From Planctomycetota bacterium (GTDB lineage: Bacteria; Planctomycetota; MHYJ01; JACQXL01), in contig JACRIK010000021.1 in the NCBI GenBank assembly GCA_016235865.1, positions 97,226 through 161,225 of the forward strand: DNA of 64,000 nucleotides, read 5' to 3'. Of this stretch, positions 20,164-64,000 are shown piece after piece. The notes beneath the pieces are model-generated. The model was not told the DNA's origin, did not search any database, and saw only the letters and a list, made by a program, of their open reading frames with translations. The first letter of the stretch is position 1, and every line of letters starts with the position of its first letter. A program made the translations under genes and the position numbers.

Positions 20164-22026
20164 ATGAATTTTCTGCGTAAAATATTTAAGAAGAAAGCGC
20201 AGGTTGATCCTGCCAATGATCCTAACATGGTAAAGGCCTATGATGGATATGGTCGGGAAATATTTATCTCCAAACAGCAATGGAAGGACAAGGTACTCCT
20301 GAAGAATCTAGAGGAGAAACGCAACAATCCTAATCAGCTTTATGATTGGCTTTTCTTGGCACTGAAAGATGGATTTGTGCAAGATATTGTTCCTTATGCC
20401 GAGCATTTATGGCGCACTGACCCTATTCCATCCAGGGGAGCCGCAGTACTCGGTATTGTCTATATGAAGAATAACCGCTTGGATGAGGCGGAACGAGTAT
20501 TAAATGATTTCCTGTCAGCACATGGCGATAATGGGGTTGTTCTGACTAACTTGGCAAAGGTATACGATAAACGGGGGGATAAAGCAAAAGCCGAATCAAT
20601 TCTTTGGCATGCCTTGGAGGTTGACCCTAATCAGGAAAATGGGCTTGCTTGGTATATTGCAATTCAGAGTGAGCGGGGAGGCGAAGCGTCGGTACTCGAT
20701 GCCTATCATCATATCGCCGCTTGGCCCAAAAGCTGGAGGGTCCAGCTTTGGTTGGCGCGTGAGGCGCTTGCACGCAAAGATTTGCCAGCTGCGGAGGCAT
20801 TTTACGCGGAAGTATTTGCCAGGGCTGAGCGTCCGGTTCCCGATTATGTCCTTACACAAATAAGTGGAGACTTAGGTAAGAACGGATATCTGGCAGAGAT
20901 GTTTCGTCTGGTCGAGCCTCATTTTGACCCGGCTATTCACGGCTTTAATGTTGGAAATAATCTTATAATGGCCAATCGTGAACTTGGTCGCACAGATATT
21001 GCCCGGCGTATTCTAAATCAGCTTTATGCCCAGAAACGTCCTGATTGGCAGCATGCGTTAAAGTACTGGGACACTGAACTTGCCAAAGACGAAGTAGCGC
21101 GCAAGGCGCAACAAAACCCCGGACAATCTATTGTTTTCATTTCAACAGAAGGTCCGTTATGGGCAAGTAAGGAATCCCCATTTGCAGTTCTCATGCCGGC
21201 TAAATCTGGTAACACACCGCAGATTGCCGTTTTGGGAAGCATGGCCTTGTTTTCGGAGTTATCCAAAAAGCCTGTGCCTCAACTCAGCGATGCTCCGGGC
21301 CGTATCAGCCGGATTGTTGCTCTTTTTCTGGCTGAAAAAATCCACCTTCAAACCGATGCGGTTGGTATAGCTTTAACTCCTTGGGCGCAAAAACTAGGGT
21401 TTGCTGTTTTTGGTAATCCCTACGGCGACAAGGATCTCTGTGAAGTTGCATGTAAGAGTGTGAAAGTTCCGCATTTTATCGTTGCTGTCAATTTTGATGC
21501 TACCCAGTTAAAATGGAAAATGATACTACGCTTATTGAGGGTGAGTGATTGTGTGCGTGTTGCAGAAGAACAGATTGAAGCCGATCCGCTGAATCCCGGA
21601 CCAGCTATTGAGCTTTTAGCTCAAACGCTTCAACAGTTGCTTGCTAAATACGCCGGGGTGCATATTACGGCACATCCGCAATGGTACCAGAATCTATCCG
21701 GACCGGATTTATCTGACTATCTTCTGCGGCTTGAGCAACAACTTGCAGTAATATGTAAAAATCTCGATTTCCTCGAAGGAGGAGGTTTGTTCGGGGAACA
21801 TGAAATCATTGATGGTGTTTTGCAACTCTGTCTAAGTCAGCCGGCAAGCCAATTGGTTAGAATGGTTCTGGCCCAAACGCTCCGGCAGATGAGCAAATTG
21901 CACCCGGAACTTATTTCCGAATATAAAGATAAGATTAATTTACTCCAACGGACTCATCTTCTGACAGGAGAAGTTGGCGAATTGATTAATAAAGCCATTA
22001 ATCAGACAATGACACGGACGGCTTAG
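20164..22026 (+). CDS. hypothetical protein, TPR-like N-terminal region; atypical codon usage
   Basis: 620 aa ORF; codon usage (cgt/gca/ctt, lower GC3) differs from neighbours. Confidence 0.55.
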   Translation: MNFLRKIFKKKAQVDPANDPNMVKAYDGYGREIFISKQQWKDKVLLKNLEEKRNNPNQLYDWLFLALKDGFVQDIVPYAEHLWRTDPIPSRGAAVLGIVYMKNNRLDEAERVLNDFLSAHGDNGVVLTNLAKVYDKRGDKAKAESILWHALEVDPNQENGLAWYIAIQSERGGEASVLDAYHHIAAWPKSWRVQLWLAREALARKDLPAAEAFYAEVFARAERPVPDYVLTQISGDLGKNGYLAEMFRLVEPHFDPAIHGFNVGNNLIMANRELGRTDIARRILNQLYAQKRPDWQHALKYWDTELAKDEVARKAQQNPGQSIVFISTEGPLWASKESPFAVLMPAKSGNTPQIAVLGSMALFSELSKKPVPQLSDAPGRISRIVALFLAEKIHLQTDAVGIALTPWAQKLGFAVFGNPYGDKDLCEVACKSVKVPHFIVAVNFDATQLKWKMILRLLRVSDCVRVAEEQIEADPLNPGPAIELLAQTLQQLLAKYAGVHITAHPQWYQNLSGPDLSDYLLRLEQQLAVICKNLDFLEGGGLFGEHEIIDGVLQLCLSQPASQLVRMVLAQTLRQMSKLHPELISEYKDKINLLQRTHLLTGEVGELINKAINQTMTRTA

Positions 22027-22077: not shown

Positions 22078-22455
22078 GCGACCATAGAGTATCCCCTAAG
22101 CGGGGGCGGTCTATCCCCTAAGCGGGGATGGGCTATCCCCTAAGCGGGGAGGGGCTATCCCCTAAGCGGGGACGGGCTATCCTCTAAGCGGGGAGGGACT
22201 ACCCCCTAAGCGAGGGTGGACTATCCCCTAAGCTGGGAGGGGCTACCCCCTAAGCGGGGTGGGGCTACCCCCTAAGCGGGGATGGGCTATCCCCTAAGCG
22301 AGGTGGGGCTATCCCCTATGCGAGGTAGGGCTATCCCCTAAGCGAGGTGGGACTATTCCCTAAGCCGGGACGGGCTATCCCCTAAGCGGGGACGGACTAT
22401 CCCCTAAGCCGGGAGGGGCTACCCCCTAAGCGGGGATGGGCTATCCCCTATGCGA
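22078..22455. repeat. tandem array, ~17 copies of 22-bp unit CTATCCCCTAAGCGGGGATGGG
   Basis: head-to-tail copies with point variation, no spacers; stops in all frames. Confidence 0.9.
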
Positions 22456-22661
22456 GGATGGGGTATCACGGGTGCGGGGATGGGGGGAGGGGGGAGGGGG
22501 GATACCCCACCCCCCACCGTCTGAACCGGTTTTTGAGATAATAACTTTATGGATAAATGGTTACGCCAAAACCCGAGTGATTTTGGTAGCAGATTTCAGC
22601 CCGGATTACTTATTTAACGAGACATTAGACGACTTTTGGGGGTCGATATTGGCCTTTTGTT

Positions 22662-23636
22662 CTATGTCCCGCCAGAAGATAGGGCCAATGCGGCTGCGCC
22701 TAAGAGGCCGGCATCCTCGCCTAATTTGGCCGGGACAATCAGGGGCTTGCGATAGGGGTGTTTCATTATACTTGCCTTGACTACCTGACGCAGGGGTTTG
22801 AACAGAATCTCACCGGCCTGAGCCACTCCGCCGCCGATTACCACCATCTCCGGGTCAAAGATGTTAATCAGCGATGCGCAGGCCAGACCGAGATAATGGG
22901 CGGTGTCTTGAACAACTTCGCGGGCGAGTTTGTCGCCTTTTCTGGCTTTGTCAAATATTGTTTTAGCAGTAATGTCGTGCGTCTTGCGTCCTACGTCTTG
23001 CGTCCGGACGCCCAACGCATAACGCCCAACGCATAACGCATAGCGTTCTACAATGGCCGGTGCGCTGACCAGCGCTTCCAGATGCCCGGGTTTCCCGCAA
23101 CTGCAGTCCGGGCCATTGGGGTCTACGTTCATATGCCCGATTTCAGCGGCATAGAAATGCGAGCCGCGATATATCTGGTTGTCAATGATAATCCCGCCGC
23201 CTACGCCGGTGCCTAAGGTCAGGCAGATGAGATTCGTTGCTTTCTTCCCAGCGCCCCAGCATTTCTCACCCCAGCCGGCCAAATTGGCATCGTTGTCTAT
23301 GAAGACGGGTATTTTGAGCGCCTTCTCAAGCTCCTGTTTTACCTTCGTGCCTTTCCAGCCAATCAGATTGGGGGAGTCAGCCAGGATAATGCCTCTTTCA
23401 GCGTCAATAGAGCCGGGACAGGCGAGGCCGACACCGCGAACGGAATGACGAATGACGAATGACGAATGACGAATAACTTGATTGACTAATTGGGCAATGA
23501 GCCGGATGCCTTGTTTGCCATTGGGTGCTTTCGAGAAAGAGACCTTTTTCCTGGCCTTGATATGGCCGTTTTGGTCCACCAGCGCCGCGGTGATGTGGCT
23601 GCCGCCTAAATCGATACCAATAGCAAATTTGGTCAT
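22662..23636 (-). CDS. ROK family sugar kinase (glucokinase-like)
   Basis: 324 aa; 'KFAIGIDLGGSHITAALVD', CxCGxxGHLE zinc motif; contains in-frame repeat insertions. Confidence 0.8.
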   Translation of the reverse strand: MTKFAIGIDLGGSHITAALVDQNGHIKARKKVSFSKAPNGKQGIRLIAQLVNQVIRHSSFVIRHSVRGVGLACPGSIDAERGIILADSPNLIGWKGTKVKQELEKALKIPVFIDNDANLAGWGEKCWGAGKKATNLICLTLGTGVGGGIIIDNQIYRGSHFYAAEIGHMNVDPNGPDCSCGKPGHLEALVSAPAIVERYALCVGRYALGVRTQDVGRKTHDITAKTIFDKARKGDKLAREVVQDTAHYLGLACASLINIFDPEMVVIGGGVAQAGEILFKPLRQVVKASIMKHPYRKPLIVPAKLGEDAGLLGAAALALSSGGT

Positions 23637-23653
23637 AAGATGTATATAGTAAA

Positions 23654-23696
23654 ATCCCCCTTAATCCCCCTTTTGCAAAGGGGGAAGGGGGATTAG
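23654..23696 (-). terminator. nested poly-C/poly-G palindrome, candidate terminator for por operon
   Basis: atcccccttaatcccccttttgcaaagggggaagggggat, perfect nested inverted repeat directly downstream of porB. Confidence 0.4.
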
Positions 23697-23715
23697 AGCA
23701 AATAGTCCTATAACC

Positions 23716-43879: not shown

Positions 43880-44575
43880 ATGTCCGACTTCACTAAGAAA
43901 TCCTGGAAGTGCGTTGATATCAAGGATATTGATTGGGGCCAGAGGTTTGAGTTTAACGAGGATAAGGTGGATACCTATGTGTCGGACCTGCCCGGGGTCT
44001 ATCGCCTGGTTTATCGGACAATCCATGAGGGCAAGGATGGGTATTTTGTATTTTATAACGGCGAGACGGATGATTTATACAAGACACTGTGCGGGCATCT
44101 TAATCTCCTGAAGATTGAACTGCCACCGCCCAAGAATCCCTATAATGCCCCGGAGCATTGCATACAAAAGACCCTGCAGGAATACCCGTGCTATTTCAGG
44201 TTTATAATAGTCCGTTCAAAAAAGGAGCGGGTCCGGATTAAGAAGGAGCTTGATGATTCCATTATCCCCAAGGGCGAGATGGAATTCGCGGCCTGGGCCG
44301 ATAATTTCTTCCGGGTGTTGTCGGCCAACGCGGACAAGTGGTTTCCTCCGGCGGAGCGTCCTGCTGATTTTAGCGATGCTCTTGATAAATTTAATGACAA
44401 GCACAAGAAGTTTATGGCGTCCTATGATGAGCATCTCAAGGTGCAGATTAATCTTAGGGCCGCTGAGAAGAAACTGAAAGACGCCGAGCAGAAACTCAAG
44501 GATGAACAGCAGAAACGCAAGGAAGCTGAGAATGAAGGCGAGGAGTGGAAAGAGGGGAAGAATAAGCCGGACTGA
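43880..44575 (+). CDS. hypothetical protein with C-terminal coiled coil
   Basis: 231 aa ORF; weak GIY-YIG-like 'PGVYRL...GYFVFYNGETDDLYKTL'. Confidence 0.45.
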   Translation: MSDFTKKSWKCVDIKDIDWGQRFEFNEDKVDTYVSDLPGVYRLVYRTIHEGKDGYFVFYNGETDDLYKTLCGHLNLLKIELPPPKNPYNAPEHCIQKTLQEYPCYFRFIIVRSKKERVRIKKELDDSIIPKGEMEFAAWADNFFRVLSANADKWFPPAERPADFSDALDKFNDKHKKFMASYDEHLKVQINLRAAEKKLKDAEQKLKDEQQKRKEAENEGEEWKEGKNKPD

Positions 44576-44745
44576 TGATTAAAGCAACCCCCTGGACGGC
44601 TCAGGGGGACTGACCGATGACTGAAGCAACCCCCTGGATGACTCAGGGGGACTGACGGATGACTGAAGCAACCCCCTGGATGGCTCAGGGGGGCTGCGGA
44701 ATGACTGAATAAACCCCCTGGACGGTCCAGGGGAGCCATTTGCGG
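44574..44745. repeat. 4 tandem copies of ~42-bp unit each containing a CCCCCTGG..CCAGGGGG hairpin
   Basis: tgactgaagcaaccccctggatgactcagggggactgacgga x4 with point variation. Confidence 0.85.
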
Positions 44746-44788
44746 AGCGACAGCGGAGTCCCGACCAAATCGGGGAAGGAGTTTTGAT

Positions 44789-45490
44789 ATGCCACAACAC
44801 GATTTTATCCCTAAATCAGACCCGGGTATGGCTGCTTTCCTGCGGAATTTGGCCAATAAGATAGGCGGATATGCGGCTACCTTTAATCTGACCCCGGCTG
44901 AAGTGGCTTCGGCCAAGAACGATGCGGCCAGGTTTACCTATATCCTCAAGGTTCAGGAGGCGTATAAGACATTTAAGCAGGCGATTTCAGGGTATAAGGA
45001 TATGCTCCGGGATGGTCCTGGCGACGCTCCTGTAGGCGATCTGGTTTTTCCGACCATGCCGGCGGCTCCGGCCCTGGTTAACTCCGGTATTTTTCCCCGC
45101 ATTCGCAAACTAGTGGGCCGCATCAAGGCCACGCCTGGTTATACCGAGGCCATCGGCGAGGACCTCGGGCTGGTGGCAGATGAAGAGGCGATTGATATCC
45201 TAAACCTGAAACCGGTGTTGAAGAGCCGTCTGGATGGCGGGCGTCCGGTGATTATCTGGACCAAGGGGGCGGCTGGTTTCCTGGTCATCTACGTTGACCG
45301 GAAGGACGGCAAGGGATTTGTCTATCTGACCACCGATATGTATCCGGATTATATGGATAAATTCCCGGTGCCGGACGGCAAGGATGCGGTGGTCTGGGAT
45401 TATAAGGCCATTTACAAAATCGGTGATGAACAGGTCGGGCAATTCTCGGAGCCGATTTCGGTCACCGTGACCAGGCAACCCGGGGGGTAG
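44789..45490 (+). CDS. hypothetical protein
   Basis: 233 aa ORF with host-like codon usage; no recognisable motifs. Confidence 0.45.
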   Translation: MPQHDFIPKSDPGMAAFLRNLANKIGGYAATFNLTPAEVASAKNDAARFTYILKVQEAYKTFKQAISGYKDMLRDGPGDAPVGDLVFPTMPAAPALVNSGIFPRIRKLVGRIKATPGYTEAIGEDLGLVADEEAIDILNLKPVLKSRLDGGRPVIIWTKGAAGFLVIYVDRKDGKGFVYLTTDMYPDYMDKFPVPDGKDAVVWDYKAIYKIGDEQVGQFSEPISVTVTRQPGG

Positions 45491-45595
45491 AATTAAGGAA
45501 AGATTCACCACAAAGGACACAAAGAATTAATTTTTCTGCGTAATCTGTGGTCGAATTTACTTGACATTTCTTGCCTTCTGTTTCACAATTGAATT

Positions 45596-46168
45596 ATGAA
45601 TATCCAGACCCCGTTAACTGATGGGATAGTGGAGAATCTGCATATCGGCGACAAGGTGTTACTTTCCGGGGTAATCTACACAGCCCGGGACGCGGCCCAT
45701 AAGCGTATCTTTGACGAGATTCAATTAGCCCGCACCGAGAAACGCGCACCCAAACTGCCTTTTGACCTTAATGGCGCTGTAATCTATTATGTCGGTCCCA
45801 CCCCAGCCAAGCCGGGTCAGGTTATCGGCTCGGCCGGTCCGACCACGGCTTACCGGATGGACCCCTACACGCCCGCGTTGCTGGAACTGGGCCTGAAGGC
45901 CAGTATTGCCAAGGGCGAACGTTCTCCAGCTGTGTTAGAGGCGATGAAGAAATATAAGGCGGTTTATTTCGTGGCGGTCGGTGGCGCCGGGGCGCTCCTG
46001 AGCCAGCGGATTGTCAAGGCCGAGGTGATTGCCTATGACGACCTCGGGGCTGAGGCGGTTCGGAGACTGGAAGTGAAGGATTTTCCGGTCACCGTGGCCA
46101 ATGATATGCACGGCGGCGATTTATACAAGGTCGGGGTAAAGCAATACGCAAGGACAAGTCCCCCTTAA
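45596..46168 (+). CDS. Fe-S hydro-lyase beta subunit (class I fumarate hydratase/tartrate dehydratase beta-type)
   Basis: 190 aa; FumB-C/TtdB family resemblance; no adjacent alpha subunit. Confidence 0.7.
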   Translation: MNIQTPLTDGIVENLHIGDKVLLSGVIYTARDAAHKRIFDEIQLARTEKRAPKLPFDLNGAVIYYVGPTPAKPGQVIGSAGPTTAYRMDPYTPALLELGLKASIAKGERSPAVLEAMKKYKAVYFVAVGGAGALLSQRIVKAEVIAYDDLGAEAVRRLEVKDFPVTVANDMHGGDLYKVGVKQYARTSPP

Positions 46169-46228
46169 CAAAGGGGGATTAAGGGGGTTATAACCCCCTC
46201 GCCCCCTTTAATAAGGGGGAATGGGGAC
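46159..46228 (+). terminator. cluster of three poly-C/poly-G hairpins overlapping stop codon
   Basis: cccccttaacaaaggggg, gggggttataaccccc, ccccctttaataaggggg. Confidence 0.4.
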
Positions 46229-49008: not shown

Positions 49009-50307
49009 ATGAATATCCTTAAATACAGATTCATCCATCGGTTGCTGATAAACCCGGTGTTCATATCTATTATCCGCTTTCCATTTGTCGTTGCCTTTTT
49101 CCTGATAATCTTCAGTGGATTATTCGGCAGTATCTATAGGAATTCCGTTAATCTTATGGTCGGTGTCATCTGGCTGGTCTTTATTTCGTTCACCGCTATT
49201 ATTGGAGGCAAAATCTGGTGTCTGGTCTGCCCCTGGAATACCCTGGCCGAATGGATGCAGTATATCCTACGCCTGCCTGATGCCAAATTCCAGGTTCCAA
49301 GGATATTTCGTAATCTCTGGATCGCCGTCTTTTTCTTCCTGTTAATTATTTGGCTGGAATATGCAATAGGGCTGGCTAACAATGCGCGGTTTATTGCTTA
49401 TCTGGCAATAATTATTTTTGGTATAACATTTATCTCGGTGTTATTATTTCCCAGAAAGTCATTCTGTCGTTATGGCTGTCCGGTCGGCGCCATCTGTGGG
49501 TTATACGGGCTTTTTGCGCCGCTCGAACTGCGCAGCGCTGATAAGGAGACCTGCCGGCAATGCCTGACCAAGGATTGTATTAAGGGCAATGATAAGGGAA
49601 ATGCCTGTCCTGTCTTTGAGTATCCCGGCACGATGGACGATAATCTGTATTGTATCCTCTGCACCGAATGCATCAAAACCTGCCCGAATGACAACATTGC
49701 CGTTAATATCAGGAAGCCCGTCGCAGACCTCTTAAAATTCAGGGTGTTATCATTCAGCGAGATATTTATGATTGTGACCATGCTGGCCTTATCCATATTC
49801 GGCGCAATGAATATAAGCCGCATTTATTTCCTGATAATAGATTGGTCGTTGGCAAAATTGGCATTACCCGAAATAGTTTCTTTATTATTCTTGATACTGA
49901 TACTGGTTCTTATTATTTTATTCCTCTTTTATGCCTTATCGCGTATTTATCGCACAAATCTATCTGTCGTTACCTATACATTTTTGCCAATCGCATTGTT
50001 TAACCATCTGGCAAATACCGTAAAACTGTTCTCTATCAGGGCCGAGGAGGTAATTCCGCTTATCTCAGATCCGCTGGGTTTATCCTGGAATCTCTTTGGC
50101 AGCGCCGGGTACCTGCCCAAACCGCTTTTTGATGCCGGGACTCTTCAGTACATAGCCGGGCCGGTGATGATTATCGGGCTGTTATATTCCATATATCTGG
50201 CATATCGGCTGGTTAGGATGCAATCTAAATCAAAGGCGGCGCTTGTTTTATTGTTAATGCCGATGGCCCTGTTGGTTTGGTTCAACTGGTGGCTGATACC
50301 GCAATAA
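49009..50307 (+). CDS. polytopic membrane 4Fe-4S ferredoxin-type protein (NapH/MauN-like polyferredoxin)
   Basis: 432 aa; multiple TMs; 'CLVCPWN', 'CRYGCPVGAICG', 'CRQCLTKDC...CPVF', 'CILCTECIKTCP'. Confidence 0.65.
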   Translation: MNILKYRFIHRLLINPVFISIIRFPFVVAFFLIIFSGLFGSIYRNSVNLMVGVIWLVFISFTAIIGGKIWCLVCPWNTLAEWMQYILRLPDAKFQVPRIFRNLWIAVFFFLLIIWLEYAIGLANNARFIAYLAIIIFGITFISVLLFPRKSFCRYGCPVGAICGLYGLFAPLELRSADKETCRQCLTKDCIKGNDKGNACPVFEYPGTMDDNLYCILCTECIKTCPNDNIAVNIRKPVADLLKFRVLSFSEIFMIVTMLALSIFGAMNISRIYFLIIDWSLAKLALPEIVSLLFLILILVLIILFLFYALSRIYRTNLSVVTYTFLPIALFNHLANTVKLFSIRAEEVIPLISDPLGLSWNLFGSAGYLPKPLFDAGTLQYIAGPVMIIGLLYSIYLAYRLVRMQSKSKAALVLLLMPMALLVWFNWWLIPQ

Positions 50308-50311
50308 AATC

Positions 50312-51376
50312 TTGCTAAAACAAATCTATCTTGATAAAATAGCAGATATGAGAAGATATAATATCGCCATTGTCGGTGCCACGGGTATTGTCGGGCTGGA
50401 GTTGCTTAAGATACTGGTGGAACGCAGATTCCCGGTAAGAGAATTGCGCCTGTTTGCTTCTGCCGGATCGGCTGGGAAAAGTATGAGGTATAAAGGTAAA
50501 GGGTTGAAAGTAAACAATATAACCAATAACTCATTTGAGGGCATAGATATCGCCTTCTTTGCTGTTGATGGTTCAATCAGTAAAAAATGGGCGCCGGTGG
50601 CGGTGAAAAGCGGGGCGGTGGTGATTGATAAGTCCAGCGCCTTCAGGATGGGCAAGAATGTGCCGCTGGTTATTCCGGAAATTAATGCCGATGCTATTAA
50701 CACAAACTCCCCTTTAGTAAGAGGGGGTAGGGGGTGTGTTATCGCCAGCCCTAATTGCTCGACCACGCCTCTGGCCATGGCCTTAAAGCCGCTCAATGAT
50801 TACGCTAAGGTGAAACGGGTGGTCGTGTCCACATATCAATCAGTCTCCGGCGCCGGTCTGCAGGCAGTGCAAGCGTTGACCGAACAAACAAAGCAAGTAT
50901 TAAATCTGAAATCTAAAATCTTAAATCTTAAATCTCAAAGATACGCCTTCAACGCCATCCCGCAGATTGATTCGTTCTGCGAGGACGATTATACCGGTGA
51001 AGAAGTCAAGATGATTAACGAGACCCGCAAGATACTCAATGATTATTCCATAAAGATAACCGCCACATGTGTGAGGATTCCGGTCTATTGCGGGCATAGC
51101 GAATCAGTCAATATCGAAACAGCCAGACCCATAACTGTTGCCCAGGCTAGGAATCTGTTAAGCAGGGCAAAGGGTATTAAGGTAATGGACAATCCTTTAA
51201 AGGGTAGTTATCCTATGCCGATTGATGTTGCAGGTAAGGACGAAGTATTCGTGGGCCGGATTCGCAAAGACCGGTCCGTCAGGAACGGAATCAACCTTTG
51301 GCTGGTTTCTGACAACCTTCGCAAAGGCGCGGCCTTGAATGCGGTGCAAATAGCGGAATATCTGATAAAAACATGA
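50312..51376 (+). CDS. asd: aspartate-semialdehyde dehydrogenase
   Basis: 354 aa; 'IAIVGATGIVG', active-site 'NCSTT'; contains two short in-frame repeat insertions. Confidence 0.85.
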   Translation: MLKQIYLDKIADMRRYNIAIVGATGIVGLELLKILVERRFPVRELRLFASAGSAGKSMRYKGKGLKVNNITNNSFEGIDIAFFAVDGSISKKWAPVAVKSGAVVIDKSSAFRMGKNVPLVIPEINADAINTNSPLVRGGRGCVIASPNCSTTPLAMALKPLNDYAKVKRVVVSTYQSVSGAGLQAVQALTEQTKQVLNLKSKILNLKSQRYAFNAIPQIDSFCEDDYTGEEVKMINETRKILNDYSIKITATCVRIPVYCGHSESVNIETARPITVAQARNLLSRAKGIKVMDNPLKGSYPMPIDVAGKDEVFVGRIRKDRSVRNGINLWLVSDNLRKGAALNAVQIAEYLIKT

Positions 51377-63123: not shown

Positions 63124-64000
63124 TTATAGTTCTCTTAGCGATTCCTTCAGATTTGCTTCCTGTTTGGCCAGTTCTTCCTGCCTGAGCAATTCTTTTTGGA
63201 GAATGGCCTGGGGCGCCCGTGATTTGAAATTCTCGTCGGATAATTTATTGGTCACTAAAGCCAGTTGTTCCTTGATTTTGATCAGGCGCTGTTCCAGCCG
63301 TTTTTTCTCCGCCTCCGGGTCAATAATTCCCTCCAACGGTATGAAAAGCTGCAAAGCATTGACGATTTCGGTGGCCGAGTGTTTGGGTTTGGCCAGTTTT
63401 ACGCCCATCTCTATCTTACCCAGATTAGCCTGATGCTTAATCAGTTCTTCATGCGGCCGAATGCCGTCCAGCGCTTTGCTCACTTCAGCCGAGATAATCA
63501 GGTCTAACGCCTGCTTGCGCTCGATTGTCATCTTATTGCGGATATTCCGGACACTCCGGATGATGCCGATATTTATTTCCATTGTCTGCTCAATCTGCTC
63601 GTCTATCTGCTTGGGCTCGGCCGACGGCCAGGTTGCACTCATCACTGATTCGCTCTGGAAATGTTCCGGATATTGCTCCTTAAACTTCTGCCAGAGTTCC
63701 TCGGTGATAAACGGGATGAAGGGATGGAGCATGCGCAGGGTATTGCTGAAGAGATAAAAAAGCGTAGAGCGTGTAGCGTTGAGCGTAGAGGCGTCTTGGC
63801 TGTATAATCTTGGCTTGATGATTTCCAGATACCAGTCGCACAAATCGCTCCAGAAGAAGTGGTAAATCAAGTGGGCCGCCTCGCTGAATTGGTAGGTCTC
63901 TAAGGCCTTGGTATAATCGCGGATGGTGGTGTTCAGGCGGGAGAGAATCCAGCGGTCTTCGAATGTGTCGTGCGTTGTGGGTTGTGTGTCTTGGGTTTTT
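63124..64000 (-). CDS. valS: valine--tRNA ligase, C-terminal part (gene continues beyond window end)
   Basis: 'DRWILSRLN...SEAAHLIYHFFWSDLCDWYLEIIKP' and C-terminal coiled coil; frame stays open to 64000. Confidence 0.8.
   Translation of the reverse strand, partial: KTQDTQPTTHDTFEDRWILSRLNTTIRDYTKALETYQFSEAAHLIYHFFWSDLCDWYLEIIKPRLYSQDASTLNATRSTLFYLFSNTLRMLHPFIPFITEELWQKFKEQYPEHFQSESVMSATWPSAEPKQIDEQIEQTMEINIGIIRSVRNIRNKMTIERKQALDLIISAEVSKALDGIRPHEELIKHQANLGKIEMGVKLAKPKHSATEIVNALQLFIPLEGIIDPEAEKKRLEQRLIKIKEQLALVTNKLSDENFKSRAPQAILQKELLRQEELAKQEANLKESLREL

Follow-up and report, generated by a model that had tools for sequence, protein, structure and literature searches.

A 21-nt-phase repeat array upstream of genes for an uncharacterised protein family, possibly a transcribed leader platform

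The sequence analysed here, called the window throughout, comprises 64,000 nucleotides (64 kb) of a Planctomycetota bacterium (assembly GCA_016235865.1, contig JACRIK010000021.1, positions 97,226 to 161,225 of the forward strand); coordinates are those of the window. Between two co-oriented genes specifying proteins of 231 aa and 233 aa, it contains a repeat array at 44567-44734 on the + strand. This array is one instance of a widespread, undescribed type of repeat array with a 21-nt phase, which is tied to an uncharacterised protein family, that of the downstream 233-aa protein. It is a conserved appendage of this gene family and not a feature of the junction of one gene pair. Regarding function, we assign a probability of about 0.45 to the reading that the array is transcribed and constitutes a multivalent leader-RNA platform for an oligomeric binder, an interpretation drawn from sequence comparisons.

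A sequence-only reading of the window had described four tandem 42-bp hairpin units at this position, and these units are real. Tandem Repeats Finder (TRF) reported a tandem repeat with a period of 42, 3.9 copies and 87% match at 44570-44733 (score 228). A repeat search detected three 80-nt copies in register, 42 and 42 nt apart, and a perfect 9+9 palindrome, CCCCTGGAC-G-GTCCAGGGG, at 44715-44733. The hairpin pattern CCCCCTGGNNGNYYCAGGGG was matched four times on the + strand (44588, 44630, 44672, and 44714), with 0.10 matches expected from shuffling, and the eight matches on both strands together were reached by none of 100 shuffles. The 42-bp period, while confirmed, is not the basic one. 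A weaker TRF row of period 21 is nested at 44616-44682, and with this basic period the array consists of eight subunits in the order A1 B1 A2 B2 A3 B3 A4 B4, among which only the B subunits show dyad symmetry (CCCCCTG-N7-CAGGGGG form). A core sequence, GGAYGRCTSA, was found by motif scan every 21 nt (44594, 44615, 44636, 44657, 44678, and 44699). It is placed alternately in the 7-nt hairpin loop of a B subunit and in the non-palindromic linker of an A subunit, and GGA is present in six of the eight cores.

The first subunit, A1 (44567-44587, CCGGACTGATGATTAAAGCAA), is a degenerate linker and holds the stop codon of the upstream gene (44573-44575). It is followed by the hairpin B1 (44588-44608, CCCCCTG-GACGGCT-CAGGGGG), the non-palindromic linker A2 with the same core as the loop (44609-44629, ACTGACCGATGACTGAAGCAA), the hairpin B2 (44630-44650, CCCCCTG-GATGACT-CAGGGGG), the linker A3 (44651-44671, ACTGACGGATGACTGAAGCAA), the hairpin B3 (44672-44692, CCCCCTG-GATGGCT-CAGGGGG), the linker A4 (44693-44713, GCTGCGGAATGACTGAATAAA), and B4 (44714-44734), which holds the perfect palindrome. 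The terminal GACTGAATAA form of A4 is kept in L002, L056, L134, and L006 (L-numbers designate fetched loci containing homologues of the 233-aa family). The 42-nt unit repeats as a whole, at 81-100% identity, and contains no unique segments. That there are exactly four copies is uncertain, since a short-read Logan contig of the same sequence begins 38 nt 5' of the start codon of the downstream gene, some 17 nt past the array, which is consistent with an assembly break caused by the repeat. Within the 64 kb the unit is not a common repeat, an option the earlier reading had considered: CCCCCTGGNNGNYYCAGGGG has no match outside the array, and the core occurs there at chance level (27 matches, 23 expected), so there is no sign of a dispersed regulon in the window.

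Arrays of the same kind were found directly 5' of homologous genes, regardless of the upstream neighbour, which may be a gene for an unrelated 230-aa protein (L002) or a trypsin-TPR protein (L007); the 231-aa gene is found only in L123. The sequence-only reading had taken the array for a signal of the junction between the two genes. This part is not tenable, since the array follows the downstream family whatever lies upstream. Copy number within the clade ranges from about 1.5 (L006) to seven units of 42 nt. A protein-guided scan of metagenome contigs yielded 79 further loci with 29-77% protein identity. Scanning contigs with the 16-specified-base pattern GATGACTGANNNNACCCCCT was too loose and gave mostly single chance matches; among the matches listed, only L027, L056, and L123 represent real arrays.

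When TRF was applied to the 700 nt 5' of each gene, a period of 21 or a multiple of it (42, 63, 84, 105) was obtained in nearly all cases, with unit sequences unrelated between lineages. In a lag test, the best self-match lag between 10 and 32 nt was determined for the 450 nt upstream of the genes. The loci used cover protein identities of 29-100% and stem from Planctomycetota, Bacteroidota, and others. The best lag was exactly 21 in 58 of the 61 non-redundant loci, with a median best score of 0.61. In control regions, a lag of 21 was obtained once in 41 downstream regions and six times in 33 far-upstream regions, both with a median score of about 0.4. All 46 TRF arrays with a row of period 20-22 have a period of 21, none of 20 or 22. 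Mismatches exceed insertions/deletions (indels) in the period-21 arrays by about 16:1; these arrays have a median of eight units (range 2-17), and typical array sizes are 8-12 units. In 551 kb of family loci, 65 tandem arrays were found that span 80 nt or more and whose period is 21 or one of its multiples; 60 of them are located no more than 450 nt upstream of a family gene and on the same strand. The 21-nt rule is strong but not absolute, because a small clade shows higher-order periods of 83 and 104, corresponding to one 20-nt unit per block. In the literature on 21-bp or 21-nt tandem repeats and hairpin arrays, nothing relevant was found. An unusual arrangement is present in L201 (2545-2860, on a 1.25-Mb contig), where two arrays, by eye inverted copies of one another, precede a family gene that is truncated at its 5' end (180 aa).

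Promoters were detected in front of several arrays. In the promoter scan, L138 showed TTGACA-17-TATAAT, matching the sigma-70 consensus at 12 of 12 positions, and L148 showed TTGACA-17-TATACT with 11 of 12 matches; both are located just 5' of the array and directed at it. Visual inspection revealed the same promoter in L145, L147, and L143, and TTGACA-17-TTAATA in L136. The position of these promoters suggests that the arrays of the relatives are probably transcribed as 5' leaders. Next to the array on its 3' side come a small hairpin whose loop is A-rich, a Shine-Dalgarno (SD) sequence, and ATG. In the window, these elements are the hairpin CCCGA-CCAAA-TCGGG (44760-44774, +), the SD sequence AAGGAG read from the sequence 7 nt 5' of the start codon (44776-44781, +), and the gene for the 233-aa protein (44789-45490, +; GenBank MBI5779106.1, locus tag HZA49_06580, from a Planctomycetota metagenome-assembled genome). 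Counterparts of the small hairpin with A-rich loops are present in relatives (GCCCTAAAAAGGGC, GGCTGAAAAGCC). L138 and L142 contain, about 30-60 nt 5' of the start codon and just before the SD sequence, the conserved hairpin GGCTGT-AACATCCTGACGGATTA-ACAGCC. Its outer stem covaries (CTGGCTGT/ACAGCCAG versus AGAGGCTGT/ACAGCCTCT), and its loop holds a CUGACGGAU motif like that of the array linker.

According to the leader-RNA interpretation, the array and the downstream gene would be co-transcribed, in the relatives from the promoter in front and in the window as the intercistronic segment of an operon. The transcript would display a motif of 8-10 nt (GGAYGRCUSA in the window) every 21 nt, alternating between the 7-nt loop of a 7-bp stem-loop and a single-stranded 21-nt linker. 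The result would be a multivalent, regularly spaced platform with typically 8-12 sites, eight in the window, for an oligomeric or cooperatively binding protein. Once bound, this protein could set mRNA translation and/or stability; the small hairpin and the SD sequence lie directly behind the array. We infer from these features that RNA rather than DNA is the active form, that it is bound by protein, and that the outcome is regulatory. Protein binding had already been proposed by the sequence-only reading and is still the most likely class of function.

Evidence for hairpin formation comes from the clade with the RAYGRCY core, in which 13 loci with 68 distinct hairpin units were inspected for covariation of the named 7-bp helix. 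In this helix, 77.5% of the cells are paired compared to 57.8% in shuffles, and 106 cells carry double-sided changes compared to 43.5 in shuffles; neither value was reached in 500 shuffles, although the register was picked per array to maximise symmetry and the units are mutually related. Slid controls gave at most 54.6% paired cells. The stems of the clade (CCCCCTG, CCCCCTC, GCCTG, TTCCT, CTC, GTG, CTAACC) surround a conserved RAYGRCY loop, and their arms differ yet remain complementary. Arms that vary while staying complementary, on either side of a conserved asymmetric centre, are the hallmark of a hairpin whose loop is specific. Where the subunits form 42-nt super-units, the A subunits, which lack dyad symmetry, also retain the core; display on single-stranded RNA would explain this, dimer binding to DNA palindromes would not. 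The 241-nt region of the window containing the array folds better than dinucleotide shuffles (z -3.36 on the + strand, -2.71 on the - strand). Leaders of orthologues (some 230-300 nt upstream, consisting mostly of array) share about 80% identity, a value inflated somewhat by repeat-to-repeat alignment, compared to 68-73% at four-fold degenerate sites of the adjacent genes. These sequence comparisons indicate purifying selection on the unit consensus.

A number of results weigh against a leader RNA as the active form. No promoter-like site is located 5' of the array in the window; as A1 overlaps the stop codon of the upstream gene, this array is probably transcribed together with the 231-aa gene, as an intercistronic segment. 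In a comparison with column-permuted arrays, significantly better folding was seen in only 9-10 of 30 lineages, the array of the window reached z = -1.2, and the + strand outperformed the - strand in only 16 of the 30. Hairpins are thus specific to clades and not a universal property of the arrays. In strand-symmetric stems, G.U mismatches do not outnumber A.C mismatches (57 versus 62; inner pairs 10 versus 14), and RNAalifold on pooled units gave no consensus structure. An apparent + strand G.U bias (121 versus 34, in stems predicted by RNAalifold for the + strand) vanished when strand-symmetric stems were considered and was not used. Furthermore, the core pentamer recurs as ATGAC in six lineage clusters and as GTCAT, its reverse complement, in another six, both with enrichment relative to permutation (each P <= 0.003), and such an occurrence in both orientations is hard to square with one RNA-binding specificity. 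Finally, we know of nothing in RNA biology that demands exactly 21 nt.

Several of these points would be readily understood if the array acted as phased double-stranded DNA of the operator, iteron, or centromere type, an explanation we regard as rather unlikely but as a serious competitor. The 21-bp units would be bound by a dimeric or oligomeric protein coating one face of the helix. This binder would co-evolve with the repeat and might be the product of the adjacent gene; binding 3' of the promoter would repress or time expression. Twenty-one bp correspond to two turns of B-DNA. The period is exactly 21 in 58 of 61 lineages despite complete turnover of the units, indels are rare relative to mismatches (about 1:16), and the unit sequence diverges alongside the neighbouring protein. 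Many units are palindromes of 15-21 bp of the type recognised by dimeric factors, such as TCGAAAAT-G-ATTTTCGA, present 17 times in L197, or TCTAGCA-N5-TGCTAGA. The core in both orientations, the lack of G.U/A.C asymmetry, and the lack of a strand preference in folding are also in line with DNA. On the other hand, the promoters detected lie 5' of the array and not under it, every second subunit in arrays with 42-nt super-units is non-palindromic yet bears the core, and the asymmetric centre between variable but complementary arms is as expected of a loop-specific hairpin. No known DNA-binding fold was recognised in the adjacent protein, its FN3 domain being the only part with matches and its helical domain being unmatched, and the median isoelectric point (pI) of the family is 5.9. 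ParA, ParB, or Rep proteins are not encoded nearby, and scans of viral contigs gave no matches; plasmid collections were not searched.

Whether RNA or DNA is bound, a period fixed at 21 nt despite complete sequence turnover implies that the reader is physically rigid, be it a protein lattice assembled on RNA or a protein that occupies one face of DNA. A tentative extension, which we hold to be doubtful at present, is a two-part module in which the helical and FN3-like protein of about 230 aa would itself, alone or as an oligomer, read its own array of about 10 x 21 nt in exact geometric phase, as leader RNA or as DNA at two helical turns. If this were true, repeat and protein would co-evolve to a private code in each lineage, and the module would represent a nucleoprotein device complete in itself, serving autoregulation, counting, or packaging without a described counterpart, widespread in Planctomycetota, Bacteroidota, and other uncultured bacteria.

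A structured leader could also act passively. Without any dedicated binder, the stem-loops would shield the mRNA from 5'-end-dependent RNase E scanning, RNase J, or Rho loading and thereby raise expression. The arrays are positioned like 5' leaders, the region in the window folds considerably better than shuffles, and tandem stem-loops are considered in a study on RNase E scanning obstacles, in which such obstacles are reported to slow cleavage at distal sites (PMC9943677). Nevertheless, we consider passive protection improbable, for it leaves the strict 21-nt period, the core in loops and linkers, and the exclusive link to one family unexplained, and many lineages are no more structured than permuted arrays.

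Still less probable is a target or cis sponge of the CsrA/Rsm type, in which A(C/U)GGAUGA motifs spaced by 21 nt would bind CsrA dimers as CsrB and RsmZ do. The six GGA-containing cores of the window fit this idea. The clade motif A(C/U)GGAUGA presumably resembles the CsrA/RsmE site consensus, and we likewise take the loop/linker arrangement and ACGGAUGA to resemble RsmE sites and RsmZ. However, no Rfam family was matched, including the CsrB and Rsm families and even at E <= 10, ACCGATGA variants are common, and the units of many lineages lack GGA despite the same architecture. With CsrA and RsmE as queries, tblastn detected no csrA gene in either the window or the loci fetched, which is weak evidence as the rest of the genome was not covered. 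For the leader platform proposed above, a partner co-evolving with the array is a better candidate binder than a universal factor, since GGA is missing in other lineages.

Attenuation had been suggested by the sequence-only reading and may play a role. No terminator-like site, as expected for an intrinsic terminator or attenuator, was found on the + strand of the array. Terminator-like matches are restricted to the - strand (44734-44714 and 44608-44588), where no gene ends. AT-rich hairpins followed by T-runs, seen by eye in L142 and L151, failed the terminator scan.

Translation of the repeat, either as the minus-strand open reading frame (ORF) with its PLSHPGGCFSHxSV repeats or as heptapeptide mini-ORFs, has next to no probability, even though 21 nt equal seven codons, the minus-strand ORF is open in the window, and gene callers place ORFs over arrays in L213 and L214. 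The ORF in question (44422-44916, -, 164 aa, containing PLSHPGGCFSHPSVPLSHPGGCFSHRSV) overlaps two conserved + strand genes. Among 44 homologous arrays, an average of 0.9 frames is open on the + strand and 0.8 on the - strand, and no frame is consistently open; in L027, L138, L145, L147, L148, and L204 none of the six frames is open. As no frame is kept open, the minus-strand ORF is spurious, an accident of one lineage, just as the earlier reading had suspected. Tandem mini-ORFs (AUG, five codons, and a stop, 21 nt in total) were rejected: the AUG of the core swaps freely with ACG and the stops are not kept. In the Bacteroidota loci L213 (7671-7967) and L214 (6101-6460), called ORFs of 98 aa and 119 aa are the repeat array itself; these are probably false genes.

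The 233-aa protein encoded downstream of the array belongs to a large family. A word-indexed search gave about 100 homologues, and a profile search 3,072 cluster representatives at 50% identity, 1,964 of them with E <= 1e-10. The protein has no match in Pfam, PHROG, NCBIfam, or PADLOC, and by sequence profile the family has no relative in PDB. The AlphaFold model (pLDDT 90.6) consists of an N-terminal helical domain and a C-terminal FN3-like sandwich. Foldseek with the full model matched FN3 domains only, and generic FN3 was likewise found in BFVD; the helical domain alone (model pLDDT 87.5) had no PDB match at E < 1. A ribbon-helix-helix (RHH) N-terminus is unsupported, since there is no PDB match by structure model or sequence profile. 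The family is mildly acidic, as reflected in its median pI. Scans of viral contigs, including IMG/VR, revealed no family relatives, and a phage origin was dismissed on this basis together with the lack of PHROG matches and the merely generic FN3 matches in BFVD. A defence system was also dismissed, as the two flanking proteins have no PADLOC match.

For the upstream 231-aa protein (43880-44575), only four homologues were found, and relatives have other genes in its place, so it is not a conserved partner. Neither flanking protein belongs to a Pfam family. A weak resemblance to the N-terminus of the 233-aa family was detected for residues 126-160 of the 231-aa protein (IIPKGEMEFAAWADNFFRVL...; hhalign E 0.019, probability 2%) and may be the remnant of a partial duplication. 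Of the six neighbouring ORFs compared with Pfam, some specify RCC1, fumarase, and HEAT proteins and the others are without a match. The downstream fumarase gene is equipped with a promoter-like site of its own (45561-45589). In L135 (1242-2600), the family gene is followed by a gene for a 452-aa protein full of short AVTxxKIxxG repeats; by eye these repeats resemble those of a fibre or adhesin, and the protein is not conserved in other loci.

The window contains further repeats. At 22090-22502, a second, unrelated hairpin array consists of 17 tandem copies of the 22-nt sequence TATCCCCTAAGCGGGGAGGGGC (85% match), followed by 3.7 copies of GGGGAGG. It is located between the convergent genes 20164-22026 (+) and 22662-23636 (-), its period is 22 rather than 21, and it does not adjoin a family gene. 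Tandem repeats of heptanucleotides are common (22974-23042, 23443-23474, 50900-50939, 63761-63790, and others), several of them inside long ORFs. The ROK-kinase-like ORF 22662-23636 (-) contains 4.6 copies of GAATGAC, 2.3 copies of ACGCCCAACGCATA, and GTCTTGC, giving peptides such as VIRHSSFVIRHS, and 5.7 copies of TTAAATC are present in ORF 50297-51373. The last linker of the 42-nt array is similar to the sequence CGGAATGAC(GAATGAC)nGAATAAC. Between the ROK-kinase-like gene and its neighbour (23640-23700), there is an inverted repeat, AATCCCCCTTAATCCCCCTT...AAGGGGGAAGGGGGATT, and a similar hairpin, CCCCCTTAATCCCCC...GGGGG, is present at 46159-46187.

A protein family of about 3,000 cluster representatives without annotation thus carries a highly regular non-coding signature, which ranks among the most regular in bacteria known to us. 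It offers a natural system to study how repeat number and phase encode regulation, and autocorrelation at lag 21 upstream of a profile match is an easy computational handle to find and classify the module. The arrays also explain why family genes are positioned on short, broken contigs of short-read assemblies, and called ORFs across arrays can be flagged as likely annotation errors.

Comparison with known systems revealed partial similarities. In Rfam, no match was obtained for the window (gathering score or E <= 10) or for 20 related loci. Elements of the repetitive extragenic palindromic (REP) and bacterial interspersed mosaic element (BIME) type are likewise short, GC-rich, imperfect palindromes clustered between genes, but the array occurs at one site in 64 kb, in strict head-to-tail phase and at a fixed place by one gene family. 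CRISPR and TIGR arrays share short palindromic repeats beside a conserved protein gene. In contrast to CRISPR, the array has no variable spacers, the entire unit being repeated with a period of 21 nt; no cas genes were detected by Pfam among the six neighbouring ORFs, and PADLOC gave no match for the flanking proteins. TIGR arrays, described in part in one report (PMC12045711), have units of about 36 nt with variable guide segments and a Tas protein with a Nop domain. The units described here are 21 nt long and lack variable segments, and the neighbouring protein has no Pfam domain and no Nop domain.

Centromeres and replication origins provide closer parallels. The sopC region of F contains twelve 43-bp units, each with a 7-bp inverted repeat, and parC of R1 and pSK41 and 22-bp iterons are further examples. 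Such repeats are also direct repeats at whole helical turns, frequently with dyad symmetry, lineage-specific, and co-varying with the adjacent gene. The spacing found here, 21 in 58 of 61 loci and 42 in the window, corresponds to whole helical turns, and the 42-bp hairpin units are much like those of sopC. The arrays differ in being chromosomal, in varied contexts, and located between promoter and SD sequence. No Rep, ParA, ParB, or ParR-type protein encoded on a plasmid or phage replicon is adjacent at the family loci, and judged by its structure model, the neighbouring protein does not appear to have a winged-helix, RHH, or helix-turn-helix fold.

Among RNA systems, the TRAP site of the trp leader and the HutP and PyrR leaders comprise about ten short, regularly spaced RNA motifs in a 5' leader that are read by a ring or oligomer. 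The TRAP units are 5 nt long, those of the array 21 nt. L142, L146, and L151 are leader-like in another respect, as they show an AT-rich hairpin and a T-run between array and gene; none of those in L142 and L151 passes the terminator scan. The CsrB and RsmZ sponges and CsrA-bound leaders resemble the array of the window in having many short GGA motifs that alternate between loops and linkers, about 20 nt apart and before an SD sequence. Compared to CsrB and RsmZ, the period of the array is strict and its motif changes completely between lineages, often lacking GGA. Moreover, CsrB and RsmZ are specified by free-standing small RNA genes, whereas the array is tied to one protein family.

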